From positions 1 through 64,000 of IMG/VR virus record IMGVR_UViG_3300035034_000989: a DNA stretch of 64,000 nt. One strand, given 5' to 3'. The notes below the pieces were generated by a model. The model ran no database searches. It was not told the origin of the DNA and saw nothing but the letters and a program-made list of their open reading frames with translations. Both the position numbers and the translations under genes were made by a program. Below, in pieces: positions 11,441 to 64,000 of this stretch (its first letter is position 1; every line of letters begins with the position of its first letter). The stretch is from a virus.

Positions 11441-12118
11441 ATGTCATTTCAAAAAACAAAAGTAGACGCCGCTTTAGGCCACAAAGTACAAGCACATTTA
11501 GAATCAATCGGACTACAGACTCCGACCACTGATTTGCTAGGTGCTGACGCATCTTCAAAGATTGCTAAGATTGAAAGTAGCCTAGTCGATGTGTGGGAAA
11601 CACTAGGTATGGATCTGTCAGATGATTCGTTAATGGATACACCCAAACGCATCGCCAAGATGATGGTGCTTGAAAACTATTGGGGTTTGCTCCCTGAGAA
11701 CTTTCCTAAGTGTACCACCATATCAAACAAAATGAAGTTCGACGAAATGGTACTCGAGCGTAACATCTCTGTAATGTCAAATTGCGAACATCACGGTGTA
11801 GTAATTGACGGTTATGCACATGTTGCGTATATACCGGGCGAAAAGGTCCTTGGCTTGTCCAAGCTTAACCGAGTAGTTGAATACTTCTCAAAGCGCCCAC
11901 AGGTACAAGAGCGTCTTACCGCACAGATTTATCATGCACTAAGCTTTATCTTAGAAACTGATAATGTTGCGGTAGTAGTTAACGCAGAGCATTACTGTGT
12001 CAAAAGTCGTGGTGTCGAAGACACTAACTCGCACACGTTTACATCTTACTTGGGCGGCGTGTTCAAAACTGATCCAGCCACACGTTCTGAGTACATGTCT
12101 TTGGTTCGCAGTACCTAA
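11441..12118 (+). CDS. folE: GTP cyclohydrolase I
   Basis: DTPKR, CEHH, GLSKLNR, PQVQERLT, H.C..RG. Confidence 0.97.
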   Translation: MSFQKTKVDAALGHKVQAHLESIGLQTPTTDLLGADASSKIAKIESSLVDVWETLGMDLSDDSLMDTPKRIAKMMVLENYWGLLPENFPKCTTISNKMKFDEMVLERNISVMSNCEHHGVVIDGYAHVAYIPGEKVLGLSKLNRVVEYFSKRPQVQERLTAQIYHALSFILETDNVAVVVNAEHYCVKSRGVEDTNSHTFTSYLGGVFKTDPATRSEYMSLVRST

Positions 12119-13072: not shown

Positions 13073-13543
13073 ATGTACTATTCAACTAAGAAATTTGGTG
13101 CTATATCTACAGGCCACAGACAATTCCGCGCCGCAGAATTAAGAGACAGCAGTCGATGTGCATGGGCACATGGTTACGGTCGCTATGTAGAGTTTACATT
13201 TGGTGCATCTGAACTAGACGCCCGTGGGTGGGTAGTTGACTTCGGCGGACTACGCTTTGTCAAAGCATTCCTCGACGAGCAGTGGGATCACCGCTTGCTA
13301 TTGAGTTCAGAGGATCCGTTGCTACCGCAGTTTTTAGAATTACAAGAACTAGGTGGATGCAACATTAATGTAATGGACGCAAGCAAAGGCTGGGGTCCTG
13401 GCATTGAGCAATCGTGTAGATTTGTCTACGACCATATTGCTCCTCGTATATTCAGCGACAGCGCCGGGCGATGTTCGGTGACCAAAGTTCAAATCTGGGA
13501 ACACGACAACAACAGTGCAATATTTGTACCGGACGACTTATGA
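13073..13543 (+). CDS. queD: 6-carboxy-5,6,7,8-tetrahydropterin synthase
   Basis: HRQ...CxxxHGY, GWVVDFG, WDH, IWEH. Confidence 0.9.
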   Translation: MYYSTKKFGAISTGHRQFRAAELRDSSRCAWAHGYGRYVEFTFGASELDARGWVVDFGGLRFVKAFLDEQWDHRLLLSSEDPLLPQFLELQELGGCNINVMDASKGWGPGIEQSCRFVYDHIAPRIFSDSAGRCSVTKVQIWEHDNNSAIFVPDDL

Positions 13544-49268: not shown

Positions 49269-49580
49269 ATGAGACTTCAGGAAATTACAGAATCACTAAG
49301 ACAGAAACAAGTTGCCAATCTAAAGCATCTGTTCGACCAACCGATACCGCTTAACCAAGCAATACAAACACTAAGTCCTTACTTGGTCGATCAAGACTTG
49401 ACTGCAATCATCGACAACGAACTGCAACTCAAAGGAAACATTGACGCCAGAAATTTAATTACCGGATGGTTAAAGCAAAACATGCCAGACTTATACAAAC
49501 AGCCAGTTGAAATGTCACCTGGTTATATGTCTCCTATTTCTTCACACCCCGATATAAGGGGCGAAGGCGATTATCAATGA
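49269..49580 (+). CDS. Hypothetical late protein
   Basis: MRLQEITE N-terminus. Confidence 0.55.
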   Translation: MRLQEITESLRQKQVANLKHLFDQPIPLNQAIQTLSPYLVDQDLTAIIDNELQLKGNIDARNLITGWLKQNMPDLYKQPVEMSPGYMSPISSHPDIRGEGDYQ

Positions 49581-49969
49581 AAAAATATGTACTAGGCTTT
49601 TGCTTTAGTAAAGATCACTCTCATGTAGCAATCATGAAAAAGAACCGCCCAGACGCGCAGGCTGGATTGCATAACGGACTGGGCGGCAAAGTCGAAGAAG
49701 ACGAAAAGCCCAAGCACACAATGGCGCGTGAGTTCGAAGAGGAATCAGGTGTTCACATCATGGCCAACAATTGGCAACAGGTAGACATAAAAACTGATAA
49801 CGAAACATTTTATATTGATGTGTTCTACACTCGTAGCGATCTGGTATACCAATGTCGCACTATCGAAAACGAAGAAGTCATTGTTGCTGAACTTAGCAAG
49901 CTCAGTGAATACGAGTTCTACGATGGTGCAGATGAAATGATTATAAAATTCCACAAAAATTTCTATTGA
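49577..49969 (+). CDS. Nudix hydrolase (MutT-like)
   Basis: GGKVE..E......REFEEESG. Confidence 0.9.
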   Translation: MKKYVLGFCFSKDHSHVAIMKKNRPDAQAGLHNGLGGKVEEDEKPKHTMAREFEEESGVHIMANNWQQVDIKTDNETFYIDVFYTRSDLVYQCRTIENEEVIVAELSKLSEYEFYDGADEMIIKFHKNFY

Positions 49970-50446: not shown

Positions 50447-53368
50447 ATGTACGTTGATGCTCTACACATAAGAAAAGACGAAATTGTTCGTATCGTCGAA
50501 AGAGTTAACGGAGAGCGCGTTATCAAGGAGTTCAAGCCAGACTGGCATTTCTTCATTGATGATCCACGCGGTACCCATCGAACAATTTATGGCAAACCCT
50601 GCAAGAAGATTGATCCTTCGAACATGACTGAGCGTGCAAAAATGCTCAATCAGTTTCATGGCAAGAAGTATGAGTCAGACATGAACGTTGTAATGCGATG
50701 CCTAGAACAAGAATACCCAGACTGCCCCAATCCAGACATGCATGTTGCGTTTTTCGATATCGAAGTCGACTTCGATCCAGTTAATGGTTATTCAGAACCT
50801 GCCGATGCACTTACACCTGTTACATCTATATCTATCTACTTACAGTGGTTAGGGCAGATGATATGTTTGGCTGTGCCTCCGAAAGGTGTTAAGCGTGCCG
50901 AAGCTGACAAGATTGCAGAGGAAGTAGGCGACACAATCATCTTTGATACCGAGAAAGAAATGCTCAAAGCATTCCTGGACGTAATTGAAGATGCAGATGT
51001 ATTAAGCGGATGGAATTCAGAAGCATACGATATTCCGTATACTGTGAATCGAATTATCAAGAAGCTTGGCAAAACAGAAACACGTAAAATGTGCCTGTGG
51101 AATGAATTGCCTAAGTTGCGCAAGTTTGAACGTGGCTCCAAAGAGCAACCAACATACGACTTGATAGGGCGAGTGCATTTGGATTACATGCAATTGTACA
51201 AAAAGTATAACTATGAAGAACGACACAGTTATGCACTGAACGCAATTGCAGAAGCTGAGCTAGGTGAAAAGAAAGTTGATTACAGCGGAACACTGGATCA
51301 CCTTTATAACCACGACTTTAAAAAGTTCTTGGAATACAACATACAGGATACAATGCTATTGCACAGACTAGATGTCAAGTTGCAGTACATAGACTTGTGT
51401 AGTTCTATTGCACATGCCAACGGCGTATTGATTCCGACAACAATGGGCACAGTTGCAATGATTGACCAAGCGGCAACCATTGAAGCTCATCAACGTGGCT
51501 TTGTTGTTCCTAACAAACAAAGGCATGACGGCGAAGTGAGAGCGGCAGGTGGCTGGGTAGCAACTCCAAAGAAGGGTGCTCAGAAATGGGTAGGCTCTGC
51601 GGATTTAAACTCCTTGTACCCGGCTGTTATACGTGCGCTGAACATGAGTCCAGAGACCATCATAGGTCAACTGGACTTGTCAGGAACAACTCGAGCAATA
51701 CACGAGTTTGAGTCAGCACGCAAAGCAAACACATTTGCAATGTGGTGGAACGATAGATTCAATCCACTTGAAATGGATTACTATCACGAAAACGATAACT
51801 CACAAAAGCTCAAGCTAAGATTTGAAAATGGTGACGAGTATCATATCACAGGCGCCGAACTGCGAAAGATCATATTCGAAGGTGGCAATCCTTGGTCCAT
51901 ATCGGCCAACGGCACTATCTTTAAAAATGATACGCAAGGAATCATACCCGGCTTGTTAGCACGCTGGTACAGCGAACGTAAGTTTCTTAAAAGTTTTGGT
52001 GCCGCATACAACATGGTAAAGCTAAACGAAAAAGATGCAGGCTTCAATGTGCCGGCTTCGTTGTTTACCAATGCTGACATAGACGACAGTGTTATCAAAG
52101 CTGATCCGTTTAACACTGCTGAAGCATTGCAGATCAAGGTATTCAAAAAGTTGATCGAAGAAGCGGATCGTGATAGCATTGTTGCATACATGAACAGGCA
52201 AAATCTCGAAGTTGATGAAAACGGCAAAGTACATTTGCGCGATCAGAAACTGGTGCATGCATTGTTAGCGTTCTGGGACAAGAGACAGTTGGTTAAAAAG
52301 ATTAACTTGAACTCGGCGTATGGCGCACTGTTAAACGCAGGCTCAAGATTCTTTGACCAACGCATAGGACAGAGCACAACACTAACAGGGCGTAACATCA
52401 CAAAACACATGGCAGCCAAGACCAATGAAATGCTCACAGGCGTTTACGATCATTACGGCGAGTGTGCATTGTATGGTGATACTGACAGCACGTACTACAG
52501 CGCATATCCTGCACTCAAGGATGATATCGACAGTGGAAAGATTCCGTGGAACAAAGACATTGCAATTGAAGTGTATGACACAATCTCTGAACAGGTTAGT
52601 GATACATTCCCGCAATTCTTGTTAGACACCTTTAATATACCGTTTGAGAAATCAGTTGGTGTTATTGTGTCGTCACGTGAGATAGTCGCAGAATCGGCCT
52701 TATTTATTAAGAAAAAACGCTATGCGGCACTGGTTTATGATGATGAAGGTCAGCGTAAAGACATTGGCGGTAGCATCGGCAAAGTGAAAGCAATGGGCCT
52801 TGACTTAAGACGTTCTGATACTCCACAGTTTGTACAGAAGTTCTTGTTAACAGTGTTAACAGACACACTGCTTTACAAAGGCGAAGAGCATGTTATATCT
52901 TACATCAAAGATTTTAAAGACAAGTTCGATGCCATGAAGCCGTGGGAAAAAGGTACACCCAAAGCAGTCAACGGTCTCACCAAGTACAAGGATCGTAGAG
53001 ATGCGGCATTGCTTGCCAAGATGCAAGGGCAGAAAGTACAACTAACAATACCAGGTCATGTACAAGCAAGCATGAACTGGAACCTGCTTAGAAGAATAAA
53101 CAATGATCATCACACAGGACCAATAGGTGACGGACAGAAGATCATCGTTTGTAGATTAAGAGAAACAGCCGATAACGTCATGAAGTCAGTTGCTTACCCG
53201 ATTGATGAATCACACTTGCCGGATTGGTTCTTGGAACTTCCGTTCGATGAAGAAGCAATGCGCGAAGCTATTGTGGATCAGAAGATCAGAAACTTATTAA
53301 GTGTGATGCCATGGGACTTAACAAAAGCTTCCAAACAGGCAGTACACTTCGATTCACTATTTGGATAA
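50447..53368 (+). CDS. Family B DNA polymerase (gp43-like)
   Basis: Exo DIE, WNSEAYD, YNIQD; DLNSLYP, KKINLNSAYG, YGDTDS, KKRYA; C-terminal FDSLFG. Confidence 0.97.
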   Translation: MYVDALHIRKDEIVRIVERVNGERVIKEFKPDWHFFIDDPRGTHRTIYGKPCKKIDPSNMTERAKMLNQFHGKKYESDMNVVMRCLEQEYPDCPNPDMHVAFFDIEVDFDPVNGYSEPADALTPVTSISIYLQWLGQMICLAVPPKGVKRAEADKIAEEVGDTIIFDTEKEMLKAFLDVIEDADVLSGWNSEAYDIPYTVNRIIKKLGKTETRKMCLWNELPKLRKFERGSKEQPTYDLIGRVHLDYMQLYKKYNYEERHSYALNAIAEAELGEKKVDYSGTLDHLYNHDFKKFLEYNIQDTMLLHRLDVKLQYIDLCSSIAHANGVLIPTTMGTVAMIDQAATIEAHQRGFVVPNKQRHDGEVRAAGGWVATPKKGAQKWVGSADLNSLYPAVIRALNMSPETIIGQLDLSGTTRAIHEFESARKANTFAMWWNDRFNPLEMDYYHENDNSQKLKLRFENGDEYHITGAELRKIIFEGGNPWSISANGTIFKNDTQGIIPGLLARWYSERKFLKSFGAAYNMVKLNEKDAGFNVPASLFTNADIDDSVIKADPFNTAEALQIKVFKKLIEEADRDSIVAYMNRQNLEVDENGKVHLRDQKLVHALLAFWDKRQLVKKINLNSAYGALLNAGSRFFDQRIGQSTTLTGRNITKHMAAKTNEMLTGVYDHYGECALYGDTDSTYYSAYPALKDDIDSGKIPWNKDIAIEVYDTISEQVSDTFPQFLLDTFNIPFEKSVGVIVSSREIVAESALFIKKKRYAALVYDDEGQRKDIGGSIGKVKAMGLDLRRSDTPQFVQKFLLTVLTDTLLYKGEEHVISYIKDFKDKFDAMKPWEKGTPKAVNGLTKYKDRRDAALLAKMQGQKVQLTIPGHVQASMNWNLLRRINNDHHTGPIGDGQKIIVCRLRETADNVMKSVAYPIDESHLPDWFLELPFDEEAMREAIVDQKIRNLLSVMPWDLTKASKQAVHFDSLFG

Positions 53369-53452: not shown

Positions 53453-54199
53453 ATGGTTTTTAACATCCTATCAGACATAGTAAAACACACACATGGCTTG
53501 GGCTTTATCGAAGCAGTAAAAGTCACTGGCTCACCAGACTCAATTAAAATTGAAGCAATGGAAGAGAACCGTACAGTTGTTGTACAGGGCACCATCAATA
53601 CATCAATTGATAACTTGCAGGGAACTGTTGGCTTATCAAGAATGGGCGTGCTTGCGGGCTACTTGAACTTCGATCGATTTAATTCGAAAGACGCATCGGT
53701 AGTAATTGAAACACGCGATCGCAACGGCACTGAAACTCCATGTGAAGTAACATTTGACTCGGGCTCAGGCCACAGCGGTCAGTATCGCTTTATGGCGGCA
53801 GAAGTTGCAGAAGAGCAAATCCAGGTACCACCTTTCAAGGGCGCTGAGTGGATGGTCACTGTTGATCCAAGCACAACTGCAATCAAAGATTTATCTACCA
53901 TGGACAGCATCCTGGGTAGTTATGAAGATTCGTTTGTTGCACGCACAGTTAACGGCAACTTGGAGTTCCACATTGGCGCAGGCTCAACAGACCGTTCTAA
54001 GATTACATTTGCAAAGAATGTAAAAGGCACATTAAAGCATGCATGGCGTTTTCCAATTGGGCACTTTCTTGCAATCATGAAGTTGCACAGAACGTCTGAG
54101 ACAACACACATCAGCTTCAGTGATATGGGCGCACTTAAAATTGAAGTGAACTCAGGCCTCGGTACGTACACTTACATCATCCCTGCGAGAGCTAGCTAG
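53453..54199 (+). CDS. Sliding clamp (gp45/PCNA-like)
   Basis: 248 aa alternating beta/alpha pattern, C-terminal Y.Y.IPA; directly after PolB, with a clamp loader in the window. Confidence 0.7.
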   Translation: MVFNILSDIVKHTHGLGFIEAVKVTGSPDSIKIEAMEENRTVVVQGTINTSIDNLQGTVGLSRMGVLAGYLNFDRFNSKDASVVIETRDRNGTETPCEVTFDSGSGHSGQYRFMAAEVAEEQIQVPPFKGAEWMVTVDPSTTAIKDLSTMDSILGSYEDSFVARTVNGNLEFHIGAGSTDRSKITFAKNVKGTLKHAWRFPIGHFLAIMKLHRTSETTHISFSDMGALKIEVNSGLGTYTYIIPARAS

Positions 54200-54229
54200 G
54201 CACCTGCCTAGCTTTACCAAGAGGTAATA

Positions 54230-55798
54230 ATGACAGAAAAATTCGATCCATTTAATTTAACTGATTCGCAAGAAGACCATTGGGCTGTGCATTTGCCAGC
54301 ATTTAGTGGCTTCTACATTCAGCAAATGGCAAAACTAGACGACAACCCGGATCACTACGGTCCGGATCGGTTCGGACCCACATTCGACAAAGGCCACCGT
54401 GGCCTAGATTTTTATAACGGCGGTGGATACTTTACTTATAAGTGGGGCTTGTATTCAGCAGGACACGCCAAGTTAGATATTGAAAAGTCTAAAGAAAGCG
54501 AACGCTTTGTGCAAAGTCGCAAGCGAGATGGTTCTACATTCCTTCTTGGTGACAGTGGCGGATTCCAGATTGCCAAGGGCGCTGGCCACTTCAAGAACGT
54601 TGATTGGAGTGATTTTGAAGGCGCTGGTGGCGACAAAATACGCGAAAAGGTATTGCGTTGGCTTGAAGAAACTTCTGACTTCTCTATGACACTGGACATT
54701 CCAGCGTTTGCGGCAGAGCCACCATTGAGTCTCAAAACTGGCTTGACATCATTTGGCGACACACTTGATTTAAGCTTGCTTAACTTGTACTACTTTGTTA
54801 AGAATCGTGTGCCAGGCAAAACAAAGTTCTTGAATGTGTTGTCGGGTACCAACTTTGAAAACTCTAGTCGTTGGTACGAAGGTGTTAAAGCATTTAGTGA
54901 CCCGATCGAAGTTGAGAAGATGGACTTTGAACGTGAGCGCACATTAGAAGGCTACGCCTTTGCTGGTATTAACATGAAGCACATGCCCAGTGTACTTGCA
55001 CGCATGGCAGACTTGTTACGAGACGACCTGATCAAAGACAAAGAGTGGATACACTTCTTGGGCATTGGTCGACTAGACTGGGCTTGTTACTTGACATCAA
55101 TACAACGTCAACTTAGGAACTACGAACCTAAGATAACAGTAAGCTTCGATTGCGCCAGCGCATTCCTGGCAGTGGCAAAAGGGCAGATGTATTCGAACCC
55201 TAGTTATACGCCTAAGCGATTTGGCTACAACATGAACAGTGCAATTGATGATCGCAATCTTAAAGAAAGCACATTGCAGATGCCGTTCCCAGGACCTATT
55301 GCAAGTCGCATGAACTTGGGTCATATGTGTCGCTTAGGCCCAGGTGAGCACAACAAGCAAGGCAAGCTTAACAACACAAGCTGGGACACTGCATCGTATT
55401 TGTTAGGTATGGCCAGCAACGTTTACATACACGTTAACGCTGTACAAGAAGCAAATCGCATGGCTGACATGGAGTACACCAAGTTTAACTTGAGTTACAA
55501 AGATTGGTCAAAGCAGAAGCGTGGTTCGCAAGTTAACGAAGTTAGTGACTTTGTTCCTGCAAACATATTGTTCTTTAACTCGTTTGTTGAGTCTTTCTTT
55601 GACAACAGCATGTCGCATGAAGACCGCATGAGCATGATTGAAGACAATCGACAGTTTCTTGAAGCCATCAGCTTTGGTGGACAGAAAGGCAACGTGTTTG
55701 GCAATCTGTTTGATATGTCAGACATAACAACAACAGAAACCGAAGCAGTTGATGCAATTGCTTCATACGCCGATGTTGATGACCTAGACGAGGATTAA
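54230..55798 (+). CDS. TGT-fold guanine transglycosylase (DpdA-like)
   Basis: GDSGGFQ, MTLDIP, IHFLG and SFD motifs of the TGT family; folE/queD/queE in the same window. Confidence 0.75.
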   Translation: MTEKFDPFNLTDSQEDHWAVHLPAFSGFYIQQMAKLDDNPDHYGPDRFGPTFDKGHRGLDFYNGGGYFTYKWGLYSAGHAKLDIEKSKESERFVQSRKRDGSTFLLGDSGGFQIAKGAGHFKNVDWSDFEGAGGDKIREKVLRWLEETSDFSMTLDIPAFAAEPPLSLKTGLTSFGDTLDLSLLNLYYFVKNRVPGKTKFLNVLSGTNFENSSRWYEGVKAFSDPIEVEKMDFERERTLEGYAFAGINMKHMPSVLARMADLLRDDLIKDKEWIHFLGIGRLDWACYLTSIQRQLRNYEPKITVSFDCASAFLAVAKGQMYSNPSYTPKRFGYNMNSAIDDRNLKESTLQMPFPGPIASRMNLGHMCRLGPGEHNKQGKLNNTSWDTASYLLGMASNVYIHVNAVQEANRMADMEYTKFNLSYKDWSKQKRGSQVNEVSDFVPANILFFNSFVESFFDNSMSHEDRMSMIEDNRQFLEAISFGGQKGNVFGNLFDMSDITTTETEAVDAIASYADVDDLDED

Positions 55799-55799
55799 C

Positions 55800-55964
55800 A
55801 TGACCGAGCAAGAGGTAATAGACCTGATAACACAAAACCTATCTATAAATATAGATCAGGTAACCGAGTTCGGGCCAGTTGAAACAGTTGTAGTAAAGCT
55901 CGAACTATTTGGCAAAGTTATCTCCGAGCATAATTGTTATTTACCATCACCACACAAGGAATAA
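55800..55964 (+). CDS. Small hypothetical protein (54 aa)
   Basis: SD GAGGA; ORF fills the gap exactly. Confidence 0.5.
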   Translation: MTEQEVIDLITQNLSINIDQVTEFGPVETVVVKLELFGKVISEHNCYLPSPHKE

Positions 55965-55966
55965 AA

Positions 55967-57160
55967 ATGAGAAAACTTTACTACTGCGGCCTTGAACAGC
56001 TAGAATCCCGATACACTTTACAACTACAAAATTGGAACGAACGTGTGTTTGATAAACGCGAAATTAGCTATGTCTCTGTTCTTGGTAAAAACTTAGACGA
56101 CAAGAAGCAAATCGTCACCGGCAGTGTGCTTGATGCACACGGCCGGACATACTACAGCATGACGCAAATGGCTGAGCTAGTCAAACTCATGCAACAGGGC
56201 GAAATAACAAACCAGGATGTTATTTTCTTTGAAGATATGTTTACACCTGGTATTGAGTCACTTGCGTATATCATGGACCAAGTTGAAGACTGTTACAAAC
56301 CTAAAGTGTTTGTTCGTTGCTTGGCACAAACATTTGATCCAGATGACTTTGTTATACGCGAAGGCATGTTTAAATGGATGCGCAAGTTTGAAGAAATGAC
56401 TGCGGCGTTTGTGGATGGTATTATTGTTGCTAACGAAGAATTCGTTGCACATTTGCGCATAGCTGGCATTGAATGTCCGATTTACGTAAGCGGGTTACCG
56501 TTCGGCAAGGAAGAAGTTGCAAGTCGCATGCCAACCAATCGCCCGTTAAAAGAACGAACCAAACGTGTCACGTTTGCGGCACGCTGGGACGATGAGAAGC
56601 AACCACACTTCTTCATGGACTTAATTGAAGAGGTTTACAAGACGCATCCTGAAATTGAGTTTTGTGTATGTACAGGTGGACCACGGCTCAAGGGCAACAA
56701 CGAAGCGGCCATAGTTCGTGCCCGTGAGATGGAGTACAGTAAAAAAGCAAACTTTAAGATTTACCAGAATCTCAAGAAGGATGATTACTATCGCATACTG
56801 GCTGACACCACTGTATTATTTAATTGTGCATTGCAAGACTGGACATCCAATACAGTAAGCGAAGCTGATACACTCGGTGCATTGACATTGTATCCGGCAT
56901 ATCGTAGCTTTCCTGAAGTGTTTGCAAACAACCACAAGCATTTGTATGCACCGTGGAGCATCGATGATGCAATCGAAAAGCTGTGTGCCATGTTTTGTGA
57001 TGTCGAATCTGACAATTTAGATAGTTACAGCATCGGCAAGATAAGCGATTGGCAAAACGGAACGATCGATCGCACACTAGATATCATGCTAGGAAATGGT
57101 GAACACTGGCGTCGAAACGGCAATGACTATCGCAAACATGTAGCAACACATAAGTTTTAA
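55967..57160 (+). CDS. GT-B (GT4-like) glycosyltransferase
   Basis: FAARWDDEKQP, Y..IL, QD.TS.T..EA, P....FPE motifs. Confidence 0.85.
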   Translation: MRKLYYCGLEQLESRYTLQLQNWNERVFDKREISYVSVLGKNLDDKKQIVTGSVLDAHGRTYYSMTQMAELVKLMQQGEITNQDVIFFEDMFTPGIESLAYIMDQVEDCYKPKVFVRCLAQTFDPDDFVIREGMFKWMRKFEEMTAAFVDGIIVANEEFVAHLRIAGIECPIYVSGLPFGKEEVASRMPTNRPLKERTKRVTFAARWDDEKQPHFFMDLIEEVYKTHPEIEFCVCTGGPRLKGNNEAAIVRAREMEYSKKANFKIYQNLKKDDYYRILADTTVLFNCALQDWTSNTVSEADTLGALTLYPAYRSFPEVFANNHKHLYAPWSIDDAIEKLCAMFCDVESDNLDSYSIGKISDWQNGTIDRTLDIMLGNGEHWRRNGNDYRKHVATHKF

Positions 57161-57189
57161 TTGACCTTAGGCGTCTGTTGCGTTACAGT
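57161..57189 (+). promoter_or_regulatory. Possible sigma70-type promoter
   Basis: TTGACC-N17-TACAGT. Confidence 0.4.
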
Positions 57190-57223
57190 ATTAATATAAA
57201 CACATCAAATCAAAGGAAGAATA

Positions 57224-57784
57224 ATGGATAGAGACGGACATAACGATGCAGTGTTCTTTGTCGGCCCAGAAATAGAGCATACCAAAGCATTTAGTATGAA
57301 AACTCTGTTTGTGGTAGGCTACAGAAACAAAGAACAAATACTCGACTTTGCATCTGACAACGGGTGCAAGCATGTTTACCTCGGAGCGAATAAGTCGTTC
57401 CAGAAAAACAAAAAGCTCATTGGTGTTGCAGAATTTTTAATAAGCAATCGCATAATGGTAACACTTGATTACCCACTTGACGCACACAAATGGATAATCG
57501 AAAACTGGCCAGCAAGTGTATTAAACAACAAAGACTTTATTGCAATGATCAGCGTTGAGCTTCCTAAAATTGAAACGTTCAGCAAAAATGCTTGTGTTAA
57601 AATTGATGACACAGGGCTCAGTCAGAACAATACAGGTGTGTGGACACTGCCAATACAAGAACTGTTGGACAGTAATCGCTTTACACCATGGTCCGATTAT
57701 GTACATGACGAAGTGGTGTGGACAGAAGAAGACAATAAAAAGTTCTGGAACGACAAGCGCAATAACGACTATCGGAAAAAGTAA
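57224..57784 (+). CDS. Conserved hypothetical enzyme-like protein in the modification locus
   Basis: G.EIEHT...TLFV, HVY.GAN.SF, KIDD, N.GVW, FT.W..Y..D. Confidence 0.6.
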   Translation: MDRDGHNDAVFFVGPEIEHTKAFSMKTLFVVGYRNKEQILDFASDNGCKHVYLGANKSFQKNKKLIGVAEFLISNRIMVTLDYPLDAHKWIIENWPASVLNNKDFIAMISVELPKIETFSKNACVKIDDTGLSQNNTGVWTLPIQELLDSNRFTPWSDYVHDEVVWTEEDNKKFWNDKRNNDYRKK

Positions 57785-58309
57785 ATGATCATAACCAGGC
57801 ACTCAAAAGCATTAACTGACATTACCGCCACGCTTCGCAACATAAACAACATGCTAACTTTAGCATCCTGGAGCAAGCATTTCGCGTGGAAAAAGAAGCT
57901 AATACAAGTGCCTGGAGTCGATAGTCAGTTTACTGAGAATTTTGTGTGGCTTGACTTTTACTACGAAAGAACCAGAATCGGGATTAAAGATGTAACGGCG
58001 TCGGGCTTGAGATTTACCATGGGCGACGTTGTTAGAGTCAAGAACATGGACACTGTGTCGTATTATTCAATGCAAGGTATGCCAGAGAATGTTGACAATC
58101 GCAAAGATAAGAGACTTGACCGTTGCATCGACCTAATGCTCAGAACCACCGATCCTGTCCTGGCCTGTAATCAATACAATGACGCATTAAGAACTCACTA
58201 TCGACTATATCGCAACCTATATGAGCGAATCGAAGGCATCGACGAGTTAACAAAGGGTATATTGACTGCCGATGAATACGATGCAAAAGTAAAGACAGGT
58301 GATTACTAA
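57785..58309 (+). CDS. Hypothetical protein, W..(K/H)F.W family
   Basis: WSKHFAW motif. Confidence 0.55.
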   Translation: MIITRHSKALTDITATLRNINNMLTLASWSKHFAWKKKLIQVPGVDSQFTENFVWLDFYYERTRIGIKDVTASGLRFTMGDVVRVKNMDTVSYYSMQGMPENVDNRKDKRLDRCIDLMLRTTDPVLACNQYNDALRTHYRLYRNLYERIEGIDELTKGILTADEYDAKVKTGDY

Positions 58310-58674
58310 TGATGTGGACATCAAAAAGCACCGAACGTAAACGGTACGATGATATCCAGTTCAGAGGAAATTGGCACAGGAAATTCTTGTGGTTTCCCAC
58401 TGTAATAAAAGAAGACGAAGGCATACAAACCGTGCTTTGGCTCACAACCGTGATGCGTAAAACGAGAGTTGACGAGCGTGAAGCGGACAACAGTTTTAAA
58501 GCTGGTGTAGAAACCTACACAACCAAAGAACAGTTATCGTTAGACATACTAGCAGGAAAGGATGAACAACTCATTCATTTTGGTACCTACGGTGCAGAAG
58601 CGAATTATCGCAGACTACTCGACAACTTAGGCATCGATATACCCGATAAAAAGAACTGGAGGGTATCGCTATGA
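58309..58674 (+). CDS. Hypothetical protein, WHRKF family
   Basis: NWHRKFLWFPT...WL..VMRK. Confidence 0.6.
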   Translation: MMWTSKSTERKRYDDIQFRGNWHRKFLWFPTVIKEDEGIQTVLWLTTVMRKTRVDEREADNSFKAGVETYTTKEQLSLDILAGKDEQLIHFGTYGAEANYRRLLDNLGIDIPDKKNWRVSL

Positions 58675-59024
58675 AATGGCAATCCAACAGCAAAGATCGC
58701 AGACATTACCTCAAAATACAGCACTATGCCAATTGGCATCGCAAGTTCGTTTGGCTACCCACTCAAATAAGCGGCGACTACGGCATTTGCAAATGGATAT
58801 GGCTCGTGCATGTTATGCGTAAATATCGACTATCATCAAGTAGATTCCACCTGTTTACTTTTGTTAGGCCAATTTACAGACTGCCACATGACCACACTGT
58901 CGCTGTGCTTGAAGACAGCAAAGGAGTCATCGACCGAATAATGTTTGAAGATTATACATCAAGATCAAGATACAAAGAGTTAATAGATAACTTAAATATA
59001 AAAGACAAGGTATTCCAAACATGA
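58671..59024 (+). CDS. Hypothetical protein, WHRKF family
   Basis: NWHRKFVWLPT...WL..VMRK. Confidence 0.6.
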   Translation: MKWQSNSKDRRHYLKIQHYANWHRKFVWLPTQISGDYGICKWIWLVHVMRKYRLSSSRFHLFTFVRPIYRLPHDHTVAVLEDSKGVIDRIMFEDYTSRSRYKELIDNLNIKDKVFQT

Positions 59025-59401
59025 TTAAACGTTTCATAGAAGTAAAATTTACAAAAGAGGGCGTTCATTGCTACCCGGCGGCGGCCACAGATCCTAAATT
59101 AAAAACAGGCGACTGGCTCGACGTATCATTTCTAGCTAACCCACATTTTCATTACTTCCACTTTGTTGTGGCCATCGAAGTATTCCAAAACGATAGAGAC
59201 ATCGAGTTTATACAGTTCTCTCGTTGGTTACAGCGCATGTATGCAAGCGACACGTTACAGCTAAACTCCAAAAGCTGTGAGATGCTTGCAGAGGATCTTA
59301 TTAACGAAGTTGTTAAAACATACCCTGGCAGAGCAATGGTAGTAGAAGTTTCCGAAGATGGCATTAACGGTGCTCGTCTAGAATTTACACCTAATGCCTG
59401 A
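59021..59401 (+). CDS. QueD-like T-fold protein (DpdL-like)
   Basis: EG.H.YP, LxxxHxHxF, DRDIEF, SCEMLA, VSEDG.NG. Confidence 0.65.
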   Translation: MIKRFIEVKFTKEGVHCYPAAATDPKLKTGDWLDVSFLANPHFHYFHFVVAIEVFQNDRDIEFIQFSRWLQRMYASDTLQLNSKSCEMLAEDLINEVVKTYPGRAMVVEVSEDGINGARLEFTPNA

Positions 59402-59739
59402 TGTATATTAAAGTGAAAAGTCGTAGTCTCAAGCGGTTACAAAAGATAGAACGCAATTGCCGTTGGCATCGGTTCTTTGTTATATGGCCACGCAAAATAT
59501 CAACTGTGAGCGGGTACAATGAATTTGCTTTCTTGACTTTTGTTTATCGTAAAGCTAAACTGTGTGTAAGTAGACATTACGAGGACTATTCGCTGTCTAT
59601 ATATTTTAATTTTGTATATGCCAAGACCGAACAAGAAGCATCGATGAGTATATTGTCGGCAGGCGACGAAATCAAGTTCCGTGATGAAGAAACGCAGAAC
59701 TATTACGAGCAATTAAAGGAACAAACTAATGAAGACTAA
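59401..59739 (+). CDS. Hypothetical protein, WHR.F family
   Basis: WHRFFVIWP...FL..VYRK. Confidence 0.55.
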   Translation: MYIKVKSRSLKRLQKIERNCRWHRFFVIWPRKISTVSGYNEFAFLTFVYRKAKLCVSRHYEDYSLSIYFNFVYAKTEQEASMSILSAGDEIKFRDEETQNYYEQLKEQTNED

Positions 59740-60199
59740 ACAATTAACATACGAGCAAATTACTGCACTCGTGCAACATCTAATCGTTGAAATTGAAGCG
59801 AGCAACTGGGAACCAGAGATTATCGTGGGTGTGTCCCGTGGTGGGCTATTACCTGCCATACTGCTCAGCAATCATTTTGAATGCCCGATGCAACCGTTGG
59901 TATGGTCTGCAAAAGATCCTAGTGGCAACGAGTGTAACTGCTGGTTACCAGAAGACGCGATTGCCGGCAAGCACACTCTTATAGTGGAAGACATAATTGA
60001 CACAGGCGAGACCATTAAACAAATTATGGAAGACTGGAATTCGTCAGTACACAAACACATTGACTGGGATTCAGTTGTAAAGGTTGCATGCTTGCACAAG
60101 CGTAACGCAACCGAGTTTGTGCCAGCTTATGTTGCTCACATATTAGATAACAATGATCATCAAGTTTACCCATGGGAGAATACAAATGCCAACCAATAA
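59729..60199 (+). CDS. Purine phosphoribosyltransferase (Gpt-like)
   Basis: GVSRGG, LIVEDIIDTGET PRPP loop, YPWE. Confidence 0.88.
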   Translation: MKTKQLTYEQITALVQHLIVEIEASNWEPEIIVGVSRGGLLPAILLSNHFECPMQPLVWSAKDPSGNECNCWLPEDAIAGKHTLIVEDIIDTGETIKQIMEDWNSSVHKHIDWDSVVKVACLHKRNATEFVPAYVAHILDNNDHQVYPWENTNANQ

Positions 60200-60377
60200 A
60201 AGTAAAGAACTAGTCATTACAGACGCAGAACTTAAAGAAGTTGAAGATCCTGTAATGGCCGCCGCACTCATGTTAAAAGAGTTACGCAGAATGAATGACC
60301 GATTGGACACAATCGATTGGAAAACTTGGGAAATGATGAAAAAGATTTCCCCGGAGTCAAACAAACCAGGAAGATGA
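60186..60377 (+). CDS. Hypothetical protein
   Basis: SD GGAGA; IDWK.WE motif. Confidence 0.55.
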   Translation: MPTNKSKELVITDAELKEVEDPVMAAALMLKELRRMNDRLDTIDWKTWEMMKKISPESNKPGR

Positions 60378-60724
60378 GTATGCGCAAATCACAAGACATT
60401 GAATTTGAATTCGCAATAGTCGAACCCGAGTACCATAACTTATTCACTTTGCATCACGGGTTCGGGTTAGGTGAGCTTAACGACAACATAGAAGCAGGTT
60501 TGACCAACAACCTTCTCACAGTACAAATTAAAAAAGATATATATGCACGCGCTTGTATTGACGCTCTCAAAGATGAACAGTTTGTGCTCAGCATATCGGG
60601 AATAGGGTTTGAGTTAAAGTATAACACGCTTTCAATTTCTATTACTGATCACATGGACCTACGCATCGACATAGACATCACTGCCTGGCCTCCGCTTGCC
60701 AGAGGGATAAGTAATGTACTTTAA
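60374..60724 (+). CDS. Hypothetical protein
   Basis: ATGA overlap. Confidence 0.5.
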   Translation: MSMRKSQDIEFEFAIVEPEYHNLFTLHHGFGLGELNDNIEAGLTNNLLTVQIKKDIYARACIDALKDEQFVLSISGIGFELKYNTLSISITDHMDLRIDIDITAWPPLARGISNVL

Positions 60725-61112
60725 AATGCCCGATGCACCCACCGAAGAAATAACCATGCTCATGCTGGATGGAAAAATGTTATCCACAGAAGATGTAAGA
60801 GAGATGGCCACAGGCGGTAACATAAAGTGTCACGTCGAAGGCATGGTAATGTCCATGCTGGTAAGCAATGATTATAGCGAACTCATGTACCATTTGCTGA
60901 ACACCGGTCAATGCACAATGGGATTAGGTCAAACTGAAATTTACCGCATAGTTGGCCCCATCCAAGTCGAAGATACAGAAGGCAGAAAGTTTTATAGATT
61001 ATTAGCCAACTTGGTACATATCGAACAGTCAGACGAAACGTGGGGTGGCATTGTTTATAACAAGGGCATAACCAAAATTAGAAATAAAGCGCAGGTTGAC
61101 AAGAATGCCTAA
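60714..61112 (+). CDS. Hypothetical protein
   Basis: SD GAGGG. Confidence 0.5.
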   Translation: MYFKMPDAPTEEITMLMLDGKMLSTEDVREMATGGNIKCHVEGMVMSMLVSNDYSELMYHLLNTGQCTMGLGQTEIYRIVGPIQVEDTEGRKFYRLLANLVHIEQSDETWGGIVYNKGITKIRNKAQVDKNA

Positions 61113-61124
61113 ATGCTGTATAAT
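61096..61124 (+). promoter_or_regulatory. Sigma70-type promoter (perfect) for queE
   Basis: TTGACA-N17-TATAAT. Confidence 0.85.
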
Positions 61125-61150
61125 GCACTGATAACAAATTAAGGATACTC

Positions 61151-62062
61151 ATGGCAGACGAATATAGATACACAGAGCTTTTTCGTTCTTTCCAAGGCGA
61201 AGGAACACACACTGGTAAAAACACATTATGGCTACGCTGGTTCATGTGTAACTTGACTTGTAACGGATTCGGACAAGCAGATCCTACTGATCCAAGCACG
61301 CATGTACTGCCATATGAAACGTTTGACATAATCGATGTAACAGATTTAGGACAACTTCCTGTTTTTGAATTCGGCTGTGACAGTTCTTACTCATGGGCTA
61401 AAAAATATAAACACTTGGCAAGCAATCACACAGCAGTTGAGATTGCAGATCGACTAGAAGAGAACCTGCGTTCTGTTTTTAACCCGCATGGCAAGTTCTT
61501 GCATCCGTTAAGCGGCGCTGAAACTCATATGTGCTTTACAGGCGGTGAACCCATGATGCGTAACAGTCAGCGTGGCATAGAAGCAGTCATGCGCGAGTTG
61601 CACACCAGAGGCAACATGCCCAACAATGTAACAATAGAAACCAACGGCACACAGAGAATGACCAAAGAGTTTGGCGAGTTCTTGGTATGGTTCGAAAGAA
61701 ATTCAGACAACGGCGAATGGTTCTGGAGTTTTAGTCCTAAGCTGTTTAACACAAGTGGCGAAACTGCACGCAAGGCAATTAAGCCAGCTGAAGTTGCACA
61801 TTACCAAGAGTACTCACAAGCAGGGCACTTGAAGTTTGTTGTTAACGGAACGACAGCCACGTGGGAAGAGCTAGAAGCGGTTGTTAAAGAGTTTCGAGCA
61901 GAAGGCATTGAATTTCCAGTTTGGATTATGCCGGTCGGTGCAACCAAAGAAGCCCAGGAAACGGAGCAAGTAAAGATAATTGTTGCTGAAACCTTGAGCA
62001 GAGGTTATAATGTTAGTGGAAGACTCCACGCACACATGCTGGGCAACGAATTAGGAACATAA
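61151..62062 (+). CDS. queE: 7-carboxy-7-deazaguanine synthase (radical SAM)
   Basis: E.F.S.QGEG..TG, CNLTC...CDS, TGGEP, IETNGT, SPKL, LKFV, RLH. Confidence 0.92.
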   Translation: MADEYRYTELFRSFQGEGTHTGKNTLWLRWFMCNLTCNGFGQADPTDPSTHVLPYETFDIIDVTDLGQLPVFEFGCDSSYSWAKKYKHLASNHTAVEIADRLEENLRSVFNPHGKFLHPLSGAETHMCFTGGEPMMRNSQRGIEAVMRELHTRGNMPNNVTIETNGTQRMTKEFGEFLVWFERNSDNGEWFWSFSPKLFNTSGETARKAIKPAEVAHYQEYSQAGHLKFVVNGTTATWEELEAVVKEFRAEGIEFPVWIMPVGATKEAQETEQVKIIVAETLSRGYNVSGRLHAHMLGNELGT

Positions 62063-62877: not shown

Positions 62878-63473
62878 ATATTTTAAACACCAGTATACCT
62901 GGTTGGACATCACCTGCTAAGTTAGAATGTCTTGCTGGATATGCGCGCCAAGTACCCGAGAACGGCTGGATTGTCGAAGTAGGCACCTTCTGCGGAAGAT
63001 CAGCGTTTGTACTGGCTGCCAATTCGTTGCCTTCTGTTAAGGTGACATGTATTGATCCCTGGTGTTTTAATGACGGTGACAGGCTGGTTGCGAAACACTA
63101 CCTTACCACATACGGCGACAGAGATTGCCACTATTCTCAACAGACGTGTGTTGAAAATCTTGCACAGTTTGGAGATCGGATAGAGCTTATAAAAACAACC
63201 AGTCCTTACTTTCACACTGACTTTGCTGAACGCAAGCCTAATTTGTTTTTTATAGATGGTGACCACAGCGGCGACGTTATTAAGCGAGAGCTAAAACTGT
63301 ATTACAATCATTTGGCACCAGGTGGCACAATGTTAATAGACGATTATCAACATCCTGTACATAAAGATTTAAGTAGAGAAGTAAGAAGCTTTGTGCTACA
63401 ATACAACTTAGATCTAGTTATAGTTAAAGAGAAAGATCCAAACTCACAATTCGCAATAATCGAGAAATTATGA
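62874..63473 (+). CDS. Class I SAM-dependent methyltransferase (Methyltransf_24-like), probable ATA start
   Basis: In-frame upstream extension gives IPGW...IVEVGTFCGRS; also FIDGDHS and GG..L.DDY. SD GGAGA precedes ATA at 62874. Confidence 0.75.
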   Translation: MNILNTSIPGWTSPAKLECLAGYARQVPENGWIVEVGTFCGRSAFVLAANSLPSVKVTCIDPWCFNDGDRLVAKHYLTTYGDRDCHYSQQTCVENLAQFGDRIELIKTTSPYFHTDFAERKPNLFFIDGDHSGDVIKRELKLYYNHLAPGGTMLIDDYQHPVHKDLSREVRSFVLQYNLDLVIVKEKDPNSQFAIIEKL

Positions 63474-64000
63474 AATACATACACATTGATAGCATGAACA
63501 TATTCTTTAGAAGTGTTCACACTTTAAACCCGAACGCTGGCATTGATGCGATGAGCGGCATGGCGCTACACACAATCTTTAACTCAGTTAGAAAGGTATG
63601 GCGCAAGTTTGGTGCAGACCATGCAGTGTTTCATACAGAAGGTCGTTCGTGGCGCAAGGACTTTTATCCACGCTACAAGCTTAACCGAAAAGTGGCACAA
63701 CTGGGAAAAACCGAAACAGAACGCGAAACAGATGAAATACTATTTGAAGCGTATGCTGATATTATTGCCTTCCTCAAAGAGAAGACCAATACAACTGTGC
63801 TACGCTGTTCGACTGCTGAGGCAGATGATACAATTGCATTGTTCATACAGTCGCATCCGGACGATGAGCACATAATTATATCAACTGACTCGGATTTTAT
63901 ACAGTTGTTAAAGCACGATAACGTTACAATCTACAACGGCGTGTCTGATGTTACAATGACCAAAGCTGGACTAACAGATGAGAAAGGTCGTGTACTTGAG
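63470..64000 (+). CDS. 5'-3' exonuclease / T4-type RNase H (FEN family), 3'-truncated
   Basis: ID.MN, EGRSWRK.FY..YK.NR, EADD, ISTDSDF.QL; not in the ORF track because it runs off the window. Confidence 0.9.
   Translation, partial: MKYIHIDSMNIFFRSVHTLNPNAGIDAMSGMALHTIFNSVRKVWRKFGADHAVFHTEGRSWRKDFYPRYKLNRKVAQLGKTETERETDEILFEAYADIIAFLKEKTNTTVLRCSTAEADDTIALFIQSHPDDEHIIISTDSDFIQLLKHDNVTIYNGVSDVTMTKAGLTDEKGRVLE

Follow-up and report, generated by a model that had tools for sequence, protein, structure and literature searches.

In Cellulophaga phage phiST, which has a DpdL/DpdA3 system, all guanine in the DNA is replaced by 2'-deoxy-7-deazaguanosine (dDG) (Hutinet, Cui et al. 2023, PMC10516641). 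DpdL carries the signature LxxxH(R)HxF in place of the CxxxHGH of QueD, and phiST CGPG_00067 and gp125 of Acidovorax phage ACP17 are the proteins given this name, with a proposed role as decarboxylases of 7-carboxy-7-deazaguanine (CDG); a DpdA is present in all the deazaguanine-DNA phages examined to date (PMC10516641). For the Pseudomonas jumbo phage PA5oct, Iyer et al. (2021) predicted a system that makes deazaguanine and incorporates it, and the virion DNA of this phage is reported to resist G-dependent restriction enzymes (2025 preprint, PMC12191111). That preprint interprets the resistance as modification of G in the contexts GA and/or GG, reports the phage to be a target of nucleases that recognise modified G (END-nuclease), and notes its QueE and PTPS. 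Here we analyse a locus at positions 53453-62062 of a 64,000-nucleotide stretch of viral DNA (the window), which forms the first 64 kb of the 104-kb IMG/VR contig IMGVR_UViG_3300035034_000989 (CheckV completeness 29%). Sequence comparison identifies it as a deazaguanine DNA-modification locus of the DpdL type, in which a divergent DpdA-like enzyme adjoins the replisome genes and a glycosyltransferase (GT) is firmly co-conserved, and we regard it as an evenly balanced question whether it replaces guanine in the phage DNA with a 7-deazaguanine derivative, one that probably carries a sugar.

A megablast search of the stretch against cultured phages gave no match. Protein searches group the phage with PA5oct (Arenbergviridae, Wroclawvirus), its closest cultured relative, and with a very large uncultured aquatic set; it is a lake-water giant phage, and its complete relatives with terminal repeats measure 362-385 kb. 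Gene order was compared across 81 related loci, and the succession g92-PolB-g248-TGT-like gene is retained in 79 of them, so that the arrangement is not a matter of chance. Metagenome relatives are detectable in large numbers, more than 6,000 for the TGT-like enzyme and about 8,000 for the GT. The genes that an initial annotation of this DNA had named downstream of PolB are all present, in the places given and on the plus strand, and FolE and QueD lie elsewhere in the window as it had reported. The principal features are:

50447-53368, plus strand: family B DNA polymerase (PolB; Pfam DNA_pol_B, E 2e-26; exo domain, E 3e-20)
53453-54199, plus strand: g248, probable sliding clamp of 248 residues, homologue of PA5oct gp170 (phrog_12062, E 5e-39)
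54230-55798, plus strand: TGT-fold, DpdA-like protein of 522 residues with a disordered acidic tail (fold of the AlphaFold2 model)
55967-57160, plus strand: GT-B (GT4-like) glycosyltransferase, long subtype (fold and a weak Pfam match)
59021-59401, plus strand: DpdL, QueD-like T-fold protein of 126 residues, proposed CDG decarboxylase (homology and signature)
59729-60199, plus strand: type I purine-type phosphoribosyltransferase (PRTase; Pfam Pribosyltran, E 2e-16)
61151-62062, plus strand: QueE-like radical SAM enzyme (CDG synthase) with an insertion (TIGR04508, E 5e-10)
11441-12118, plus strand: FolE, GTP cyclohydrolase I (Pfam, E 3e-56)
13073-13543, plus strand: QueD, canonical PTPS/CPH4 synthase type (Pfam PTPS, E 2e-18)

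The assignment of the pathway turns on the small T-fold gene at 59021-59401. The initial annotation had called its product a QueD-like T-fold protein; the fold stands, and the identity can now be refined to DpdL. By tblastn it is 50% identical to ACP17 gp125 (E 2e-30) and 30% identical to phiST CGPG_00067 (E 3e-5), and it shares 59% identity with gp166, the DpdL of PA5oct. The signature LxxxH(R/F)HxF is present, with L38, H42, H44 and F46 invariant in 24 sequences; the window protein reads LANPHFHYF, with Phe at the Arg position as in PA5oct. By analogy with the named proteins, it is proposed to be a CDG decarboxylase. Its context also agrees, since FolE, QueD, QueE and a DpdA-like gene are present and QueC is not found. 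Because this T-fold gene is DpdL, the pathway is of the FolE-QueD-QueE-DpdL type and not of the preQ0 type.

Neither QueC nor QueF was matched anywhere in the 104-kb contig, in agreement with the initial annotation. Of four complete relatives, two likewise give no QueC match, as does PA5oct; the remaining two have short partial matches, confined to the last 55 model positions, in open reading frames (ORFs) of about 210-220 residues (G001:C1:202642-202812 and G002:C1:38888-39058), which probably represent another PP-loop enzyme and not QueC. QueD is found in PA5oct and all four of the complete relatives. The product of 61151-62062 is read as a divergent QueE: it reaches 39.5 bits with TIGR04508, against a cut-off of 240, its insertion breaking the match, and three more QueE models also score below their cut-offs, but it retains the motifs QGEG and CNLTC...CDSSY, with the cluster cysteines present, and is 34% identical to PA5oct gp162, annotated as QueE. 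The PRTase matches NCBIfam XPRT/HGPRT models below their cut-offs (E 2e-9 to 1e-6) and has the phosphoribosyl pyrophosphate (PRPP) loop VEDIIDTGET; it occurs in 20 related loci, in PA5oct (gp163) and in BUCT-ZZ01.

The identity of the 522-residue protein was revealed only by its fold, as it has no Pfam, NCBIfam, PHROGs or PDB-sequence match. Its AlphaFold2 model has a predicted local distance difference test (pLDDT) score of 87 and matches TGT/QTRT1 in Foldseek (E 5e-7, prob 1.0); with VIA-align, 303 residues within the span 15-448 superimpose on TGT with Z 19.7 and a root-mean-square deviation (rmsd) of 4.5. The (beta/alpha)8 barrel and the C-terminal subdomain that define the TGT fold are both present. 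Among 32 sequences of the family the segments GDSGGFQ (containing D108), D156, GYAFAG, HFLGIG and SFDxAS (containing D307) are invariant. In hhalign, GYAFAG, HFLGIG and SFDxAS fall on the E. coli Tgt blocks GYAVGG, YLMGVG and MFDCV, such that D307 aligns with the nucleophilic Asp of MFDCV, and both catalytic Asp motifs are kept. The DSGG of the window protein aligns with that of ACP17 gp123, a DpdA-type protein to which it is remotely related (hhalign prob 86%, E 5.5e-6). From the modelled fold and these motifs we infer that the protein is a very divergent, zinc-less relative of DpdA, with a predicted role as a base-exchange enzyme.

The replisome genes directly precede this enzyme. The window PolB ends in HFDSLFG, a C-terminal motif found in 72 of 74 full-length relatives, whose end peptides include LETLFDFSAL and FIDDLFS. 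We take this peptide to be a clamp-binding end of the T4/RB69 gp43 type. The PA5oct PolB gene (L082:5605-10831) is interrupted by a homing endonuclease, that of the window is intact, and shortened PolB matches in several IMG/VR loci suggest similar insertions. Following PolB in 79 of the 81 related loci is g248, which the initial annotation had called simply a clamp. We would retain this as probable: g248 is homologous (hhalign E 9e-49) to a Sinorhizobium phage Phosso gene that bears a sliding-clamp annotation, and its nearest named ESM Atlas clusters contain PCNA_N or gp45-slide_C domains (0.93-0.94), but it has no match in PDB sequences and its profile does not match T4-type gp45.

A connection between clamp and base-exchange enzyme is suggested by the tail of the latter, which is disordered and acidic (pLDDT <50 from residue 487) and carries the peptide VFGNLFDM, resembling the end of PolB. 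Of 79 TGT-like tails, 40 contain the strict pattern F..LF[DGE]; its frequency in the body of the protein is 0.01 per 75 residues, and the C-termini of six other locus families have none. In one clade the tail and PolB peptides are nearly identical. It is plausible from these motifs that the TGT-like enzyme is tethered to the clamp through its PolB-like tail peptide.

Unlike that of phiST, the locus carries a GT. Its translation probably starts at 55967 (MRKLYYCGLE) and not at 55934. Its match to Pfam Glycos_transf_1 (E 1e-4) scores 22.1 bits, below the 26.4 gathering cut-off, and some close homologues bear a precomputed PF00534 match. The AlphaFold2 model (pLDDT 86.8; Foldseek E 3e-11) has a full-length GT-B fold of two Rossmann domains that superimposes on sucrose-phosphate synthase with Z 25.9 and rmsd 4.0 over 347 residues, and BshA, MshA and glycogen synthase lie within 1 Z of this best match (Z 25-26, about 330-347 residues). 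Two subtypes can be distinguished, a long one represented by the window GT and a short one represented by PA5oct gp167 and ACP17 gp124, which are homologous over the whole length (window GT to gp167, E 1e-10; gp167 to gp124, E 4e-60). A relationship with QTMAN was considered and finds no support: GT1 was the sole Pfam match, and QTMAN/GTDC1 is absent among the PDB profile and fold matches listed.

The GT follows the modification genes with great regularity. A hidden Markov model for the GT finds it in 55 of the 58 related loci that show DpdL; two of the exceptions end where the GT would follow, so that it is present in 55 of the 56 loci that reach far enough to be informative. This co-conservation with the TGT gene, on which the initial annotation had made its proposal depend, therefore holds. 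The GT directly adjoins DpdL or a DpdA-like gene in ACP17, PA5oct, Phosso, Synechococcus phage BUCT-ZZ01 (whose GT, adjoining DpdL, is 55% identical to that of the window) and Xanthomonas phage X1; in two further phages, BUDD of Xanthomonas and BCSR5 of Burkholderia, tblastn positions put it no more than about 4 kb from DpdL. In all, it stands beside DpdL in six unrelated groups of cultured phages. The GT is missing from some phages that have DpdL, namely phiST and its relatives, RHph_I1_18 and Ahp1. The GT fits the part of an add-on tailoring step, because phiST, which has none, has plain dDG.

Enzymes of nucleoside diphosphate (NDP)-sugar metabolism accompany the GT in many relatives. An NAD epimerase/dehydratase (PF01370, E 1e-52 to 1e-56) stands beside it in 40 loci, often overlapping the GT stop codon, and in 7 loci a pair of oxidoreductases (GFO_IDH_MocA and ADH_N) is located directly upstream. 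Since the sugar-supply genes vary by lineage, they show the pattern expected of a final decoration that is exposed to host defences.

Two further observations concern sugar genes in cultured phages. The 172-residue gp164 of PA5oct (L082:15416-15934) matches the NAD-binding half alone of the epimerase/dehydratase family (E 6e-7) and seems to be what is left of the complete epimerase found beside the GT in the 40 environmental loci. BUCT-ZZ01 has a second GT1-like gene, UTS52035 (L085:5010-6353; 447 residues, Pfam E 3e-5), that adjoins the DpdA-like gene and may point to a decoration with two sugars there.

Comparison with the described systems places the locus as follows. It resembles that of phiST in having FolE, QueD, QueE and a DpdL with LxxxH(R/F)HxF, in lacking QueC, and in placing a TGT-superfamily enzyme near the polymerase. 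It differs in that phiST has no GT, no PRTase and no g186 (a conserved phage-only gene of the window), and in that DpdA3 of phiST has 259 residues as compared with 522 here; a tblastn search with the window enzyme does not find the phiST protein. PA5oct has the same order, namely PolB, gp170, gp168 (45% identical to the window TGT-like protein), the gp167 GT, the gp166 DpdL, the gp163 PRTase and the gp162 QueE, but its GT is of the short subtype (about 21-22% identical), it has only the apparent epimerase remnant, and there is no g186 in the locus. The ACP17 module has QueD and FolE and, adjoining one another, gp122 (the g186 homologue), the DpdA-type gp123, the gp124 GT, the gp125 DpdL and QueE; it differs in belonging to a T4-like phage of 156 kb and in not being linked to a clamp gene.

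These comparisons suggest a mechanism. By family homology, FolE, QueD and QueE would convert guanosine triphosphate (GTP) to CDG, which DpdL, with QueC absent, would divert, most likely by decarboxylation to 7-deazaguanine as its phiST and ACP17 homologues imply. The 522-residue enzyme would then exchange G in duplex DNA for the deaza base. It may do so at the replication fork, on the sliding clamp encoded between PolB and its own gene, a possibility that arises because its disordered tail peptide resembles the clamp-binding end of PolB. The GT4-like enzyme would transfer a sugar from an NDP-sugar, either to the free base before insertion or to the DNA afterwards, and related phages would tailor the sugar with the epimerase/dehydratase or the oxidoreductase pair. 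For the PRTase the simplest role would be to recycle the released guanine to guanosine monophosphate, which would feed FolE. The outcome would be DNA unreadable to restriction enzymes, as the work on PA5oct suggests (PMC12191111).

The initial annotation had held that the phage swaps G for a deazaguanine and then decorates it with a sugar. The first half of that proposal is supported by a QueC-less deazaguanine DNA-modification locus, a TGT-fold enzyme beside the replisome genes and the G-dependent resistance of PA5oct DNA; the sugar-bearing deazaguanine is a reasonable prediction from gene content. A broader version, in which the whole family and the unrelated carriers of the module replace G by a glycosylated 7-deazaguanine, installed at the fork by a clamp-tethered, zinc-less TGT-fold enzyme and diversified by lineage-specific NDP-sugar enzymes, we advance more tentatively, leaning slightly against it.

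Several observations weigh against a glycosylated deazaguanine made in this way. The C7 of 7-deazaguanine bears no hydroxyl, amine or carboxyl side chain that might act as acceptor, so that a sugar would need C-glycosylation, attachment at N2 or O6, or a further intermediate step. The enzymes closest in structure to the GT have small molecules or glycans as substrates, not DNA, and the acceptor half of the GT is acidic (isoelectric point 4.8; isoelectric points are otherwise uninformative). There is no GT within 10 kb in locus L010. The window itself encodes no NDP-sugar enzyme, and its phage would therefore use a host NDP-sugar. On the side of base exchange, the Pfam TGT family PF01702 matches neither the protein nor any of the six frames of the 104-kb contig, and the zinc motif CxCxxC is not present, C367 and H401 being the only residues of this kind that are invariant after the nucleophile. 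A lineage-specific co-variation between tail peptide and PolB C-terminus was rejected, as own pairs score 17.1 and cross pairs 16.1 (body windows 11.9); because own pairs are no better than cross pairs, we claim a shared motif and not co-variation. Finally, ACP17 DpdA and DpdL co-expressed in E. coli gave no dDG, with the GT and gp122 omitted (PMC10516641).

Some of these points are accommodated by a different explanation, in which the DNA contains plain dDG, as in phiST, and the GT, kept with the module for a purpose unconnected with base decoration, glycosylates a protein, a glycan of the host or virion, or a small molecule formed as an intermediate or by-product. The missing acceptor on 7-deazaguanine would then present no difficulty, the small-molecule and glycan GT4 enzymes among the structural neighbours would be as expected, DpdL phages without a GT do exist, phiST with its plain dDG among them, and more distant GT homologues occur in unrelated sugar contexts, for example in PhiXhv-15. 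What this explanation leaves unaccounted for is the position of the GT, flanked closely by the DpdA-like gene on one side and DpdL on the other across many unrelated lineages and present in 55 of the 56 informative loci, and the flanking sugar-tailoring genes, which differ by lineage as a defence-exposed final decoration would lead one to expect. We consider it unlikely, though a serious competitor.

Another route to a modified base would be pre-replicative: the PRTase would join the deaza base to PRPP, the nucleotide would be reduced and phosphorylated and then incorporated by PolB, and the TGT-like enzyme would serve in proofreading or salvage. The tubercidin and toyocamycin pathways do use a PRTase on CDG or preQ0, and a PRTase is part of the window locus, of its PA5oct and BUCT-ZZ01 counterparts and of 20 related loci. 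That number is far smaller than for the TGT-like gene, DpdL and the GT, although many loci end before the usual position of the PRTase; the ACP17 and X1 modules show none, the TGT-like enzyme retains its catalytic motifs, and the deazaguanine-DNA phages studied all have DpdA (PMC10516641). Such a route appears improbable.

The weakest alternative leaves DNA untouched: the TGT-like enzyme and GT would act on tRNA, giving a queuosine-like base that bears a sugar, or the genes would serve the synthesis of a pterin glycoside. It can draw on the classical action of TGT enzymes on tRNA, on the existence of sugar-bearing queuosine there, and on tetrahydrobiopterin glucosyltransferases among the GT neighbours (Z 22.6-22.8, against 25.9 for the best), but we give it very little credence, as PA5oct virion DNA is G-modified (PMC12191111), DpdL-type systems yield dDG in DNA (PMC10516641), 79 of 81 loci place the genes in a replication module beside PolB and the clamp, and a pathway to a pterin would have no use for QueE.

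On the reading in which the DNA base itself is glycosylated, it is the GT that could be new. The deazaguanine system is of a kind already known, since Iyer et al. (2021) had predicted it in PA5oct and Hutinet, Cui et al. (2023) had described DpdL. The MIJ3 and PA5oct genome papers make no mention of DNA modification, and our literature search found no paper linking a GT to the PA5oct base. The same search, which left most subscription journals outside its range, found no characterised sugar-bearing deazaguanine in DNA, as the initial annotation had supposed, and the DNA glycosylations that it did find were all on pyrimidines. The known glycosylated DNA bases, glucosyl-5-hydroxymethylcytosine (5hmC) of T4 and the 5hmC and 5-hydroxycytosine glycans of other phages, resemble the present proposal in their use of a GT and an NDP-sugar and in the diversification of the sugars among relatives, but differ in being pyrimidines with a hydroxyl acceptor. 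In mannosyl- and galactosyl-queuosine the sugars are on tRNA and are attached to the cyclopentenediol.

If a sugar is indeed carried on the base, it would constitute a new class of DNA hypermodification and the first sugar-bearing purine in DNA. With it the modified G of PA5oct-type therapeutic jumbo phages would have a name, and the failure of DpdA and DpdL alone in E. coli a possible explanation. The enzymes would be new tools for DNA labelling, and the base a new substrate on which to study defence nucleases and glycosylases that depend on modification. If the base-exchange enzyme is indeed tethered to the clamp, this would explain how replacement can be nearly complete. The prediction bears on phages that are already in culture.

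The remaining genes of the locus, interspersed among those described above, are:

57224-57784, plus strand: g186, conserved phage-only protein (found in 60-62 related loci)
57785-59024, plus strand: three small lineage-specific ORFs of 174, 121 and 117 residues (no family match)
59401-59739: one small ORF (no family match)
60317-61112, plus strand: two small lineage-specific ORFs of 135 and 132 residues (no family match)

In the related loci g186 adjoins DpdL or the TGT-like gene, and its hidden Markov model also matches ACP17 gp122. It belongs to no recognisable family, having no Pfam, PHROG or PDB match, and it does not match PA5oct gp164, the Phosso 'glycosylase' or the BUCT-ZZ01 neighbour; its Atlas model is weak and beta/alpha-like. 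A search for longer g186 fusions returned a single fusion to a sheath protein, probably a gene-calling artefact. In many relatives g186 has 250-300 residues (for example L019:15139-15966), with a low-complexity C-terminal tail that contains a conserved N..LGLD....S.LKP and a lysine-rich end; this tail is absent from the window protein.

The six small ORFs that lie between the pathway genes, which the initial annotation had passed over, encode 112-174 residues, several of them basic, and have no relative in 80 related loci; we do not assign them to the modification system. In 23 related loci a 277-residue gene is found between the TGT-like gene and the GT (for example L010:11756-12589); it matches DHHA1 weakly (Pfam E 1e-3) and may encode a phosphoesterase of the module in those lineages. 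Outside the locus, a NUDIX gene (49577-49969) precedes PolB, and downstream are a Methyltransf_24 methyltransferase (63027-63473, E 1e-11) and a 5'-3' exonuclease (63470-64000).

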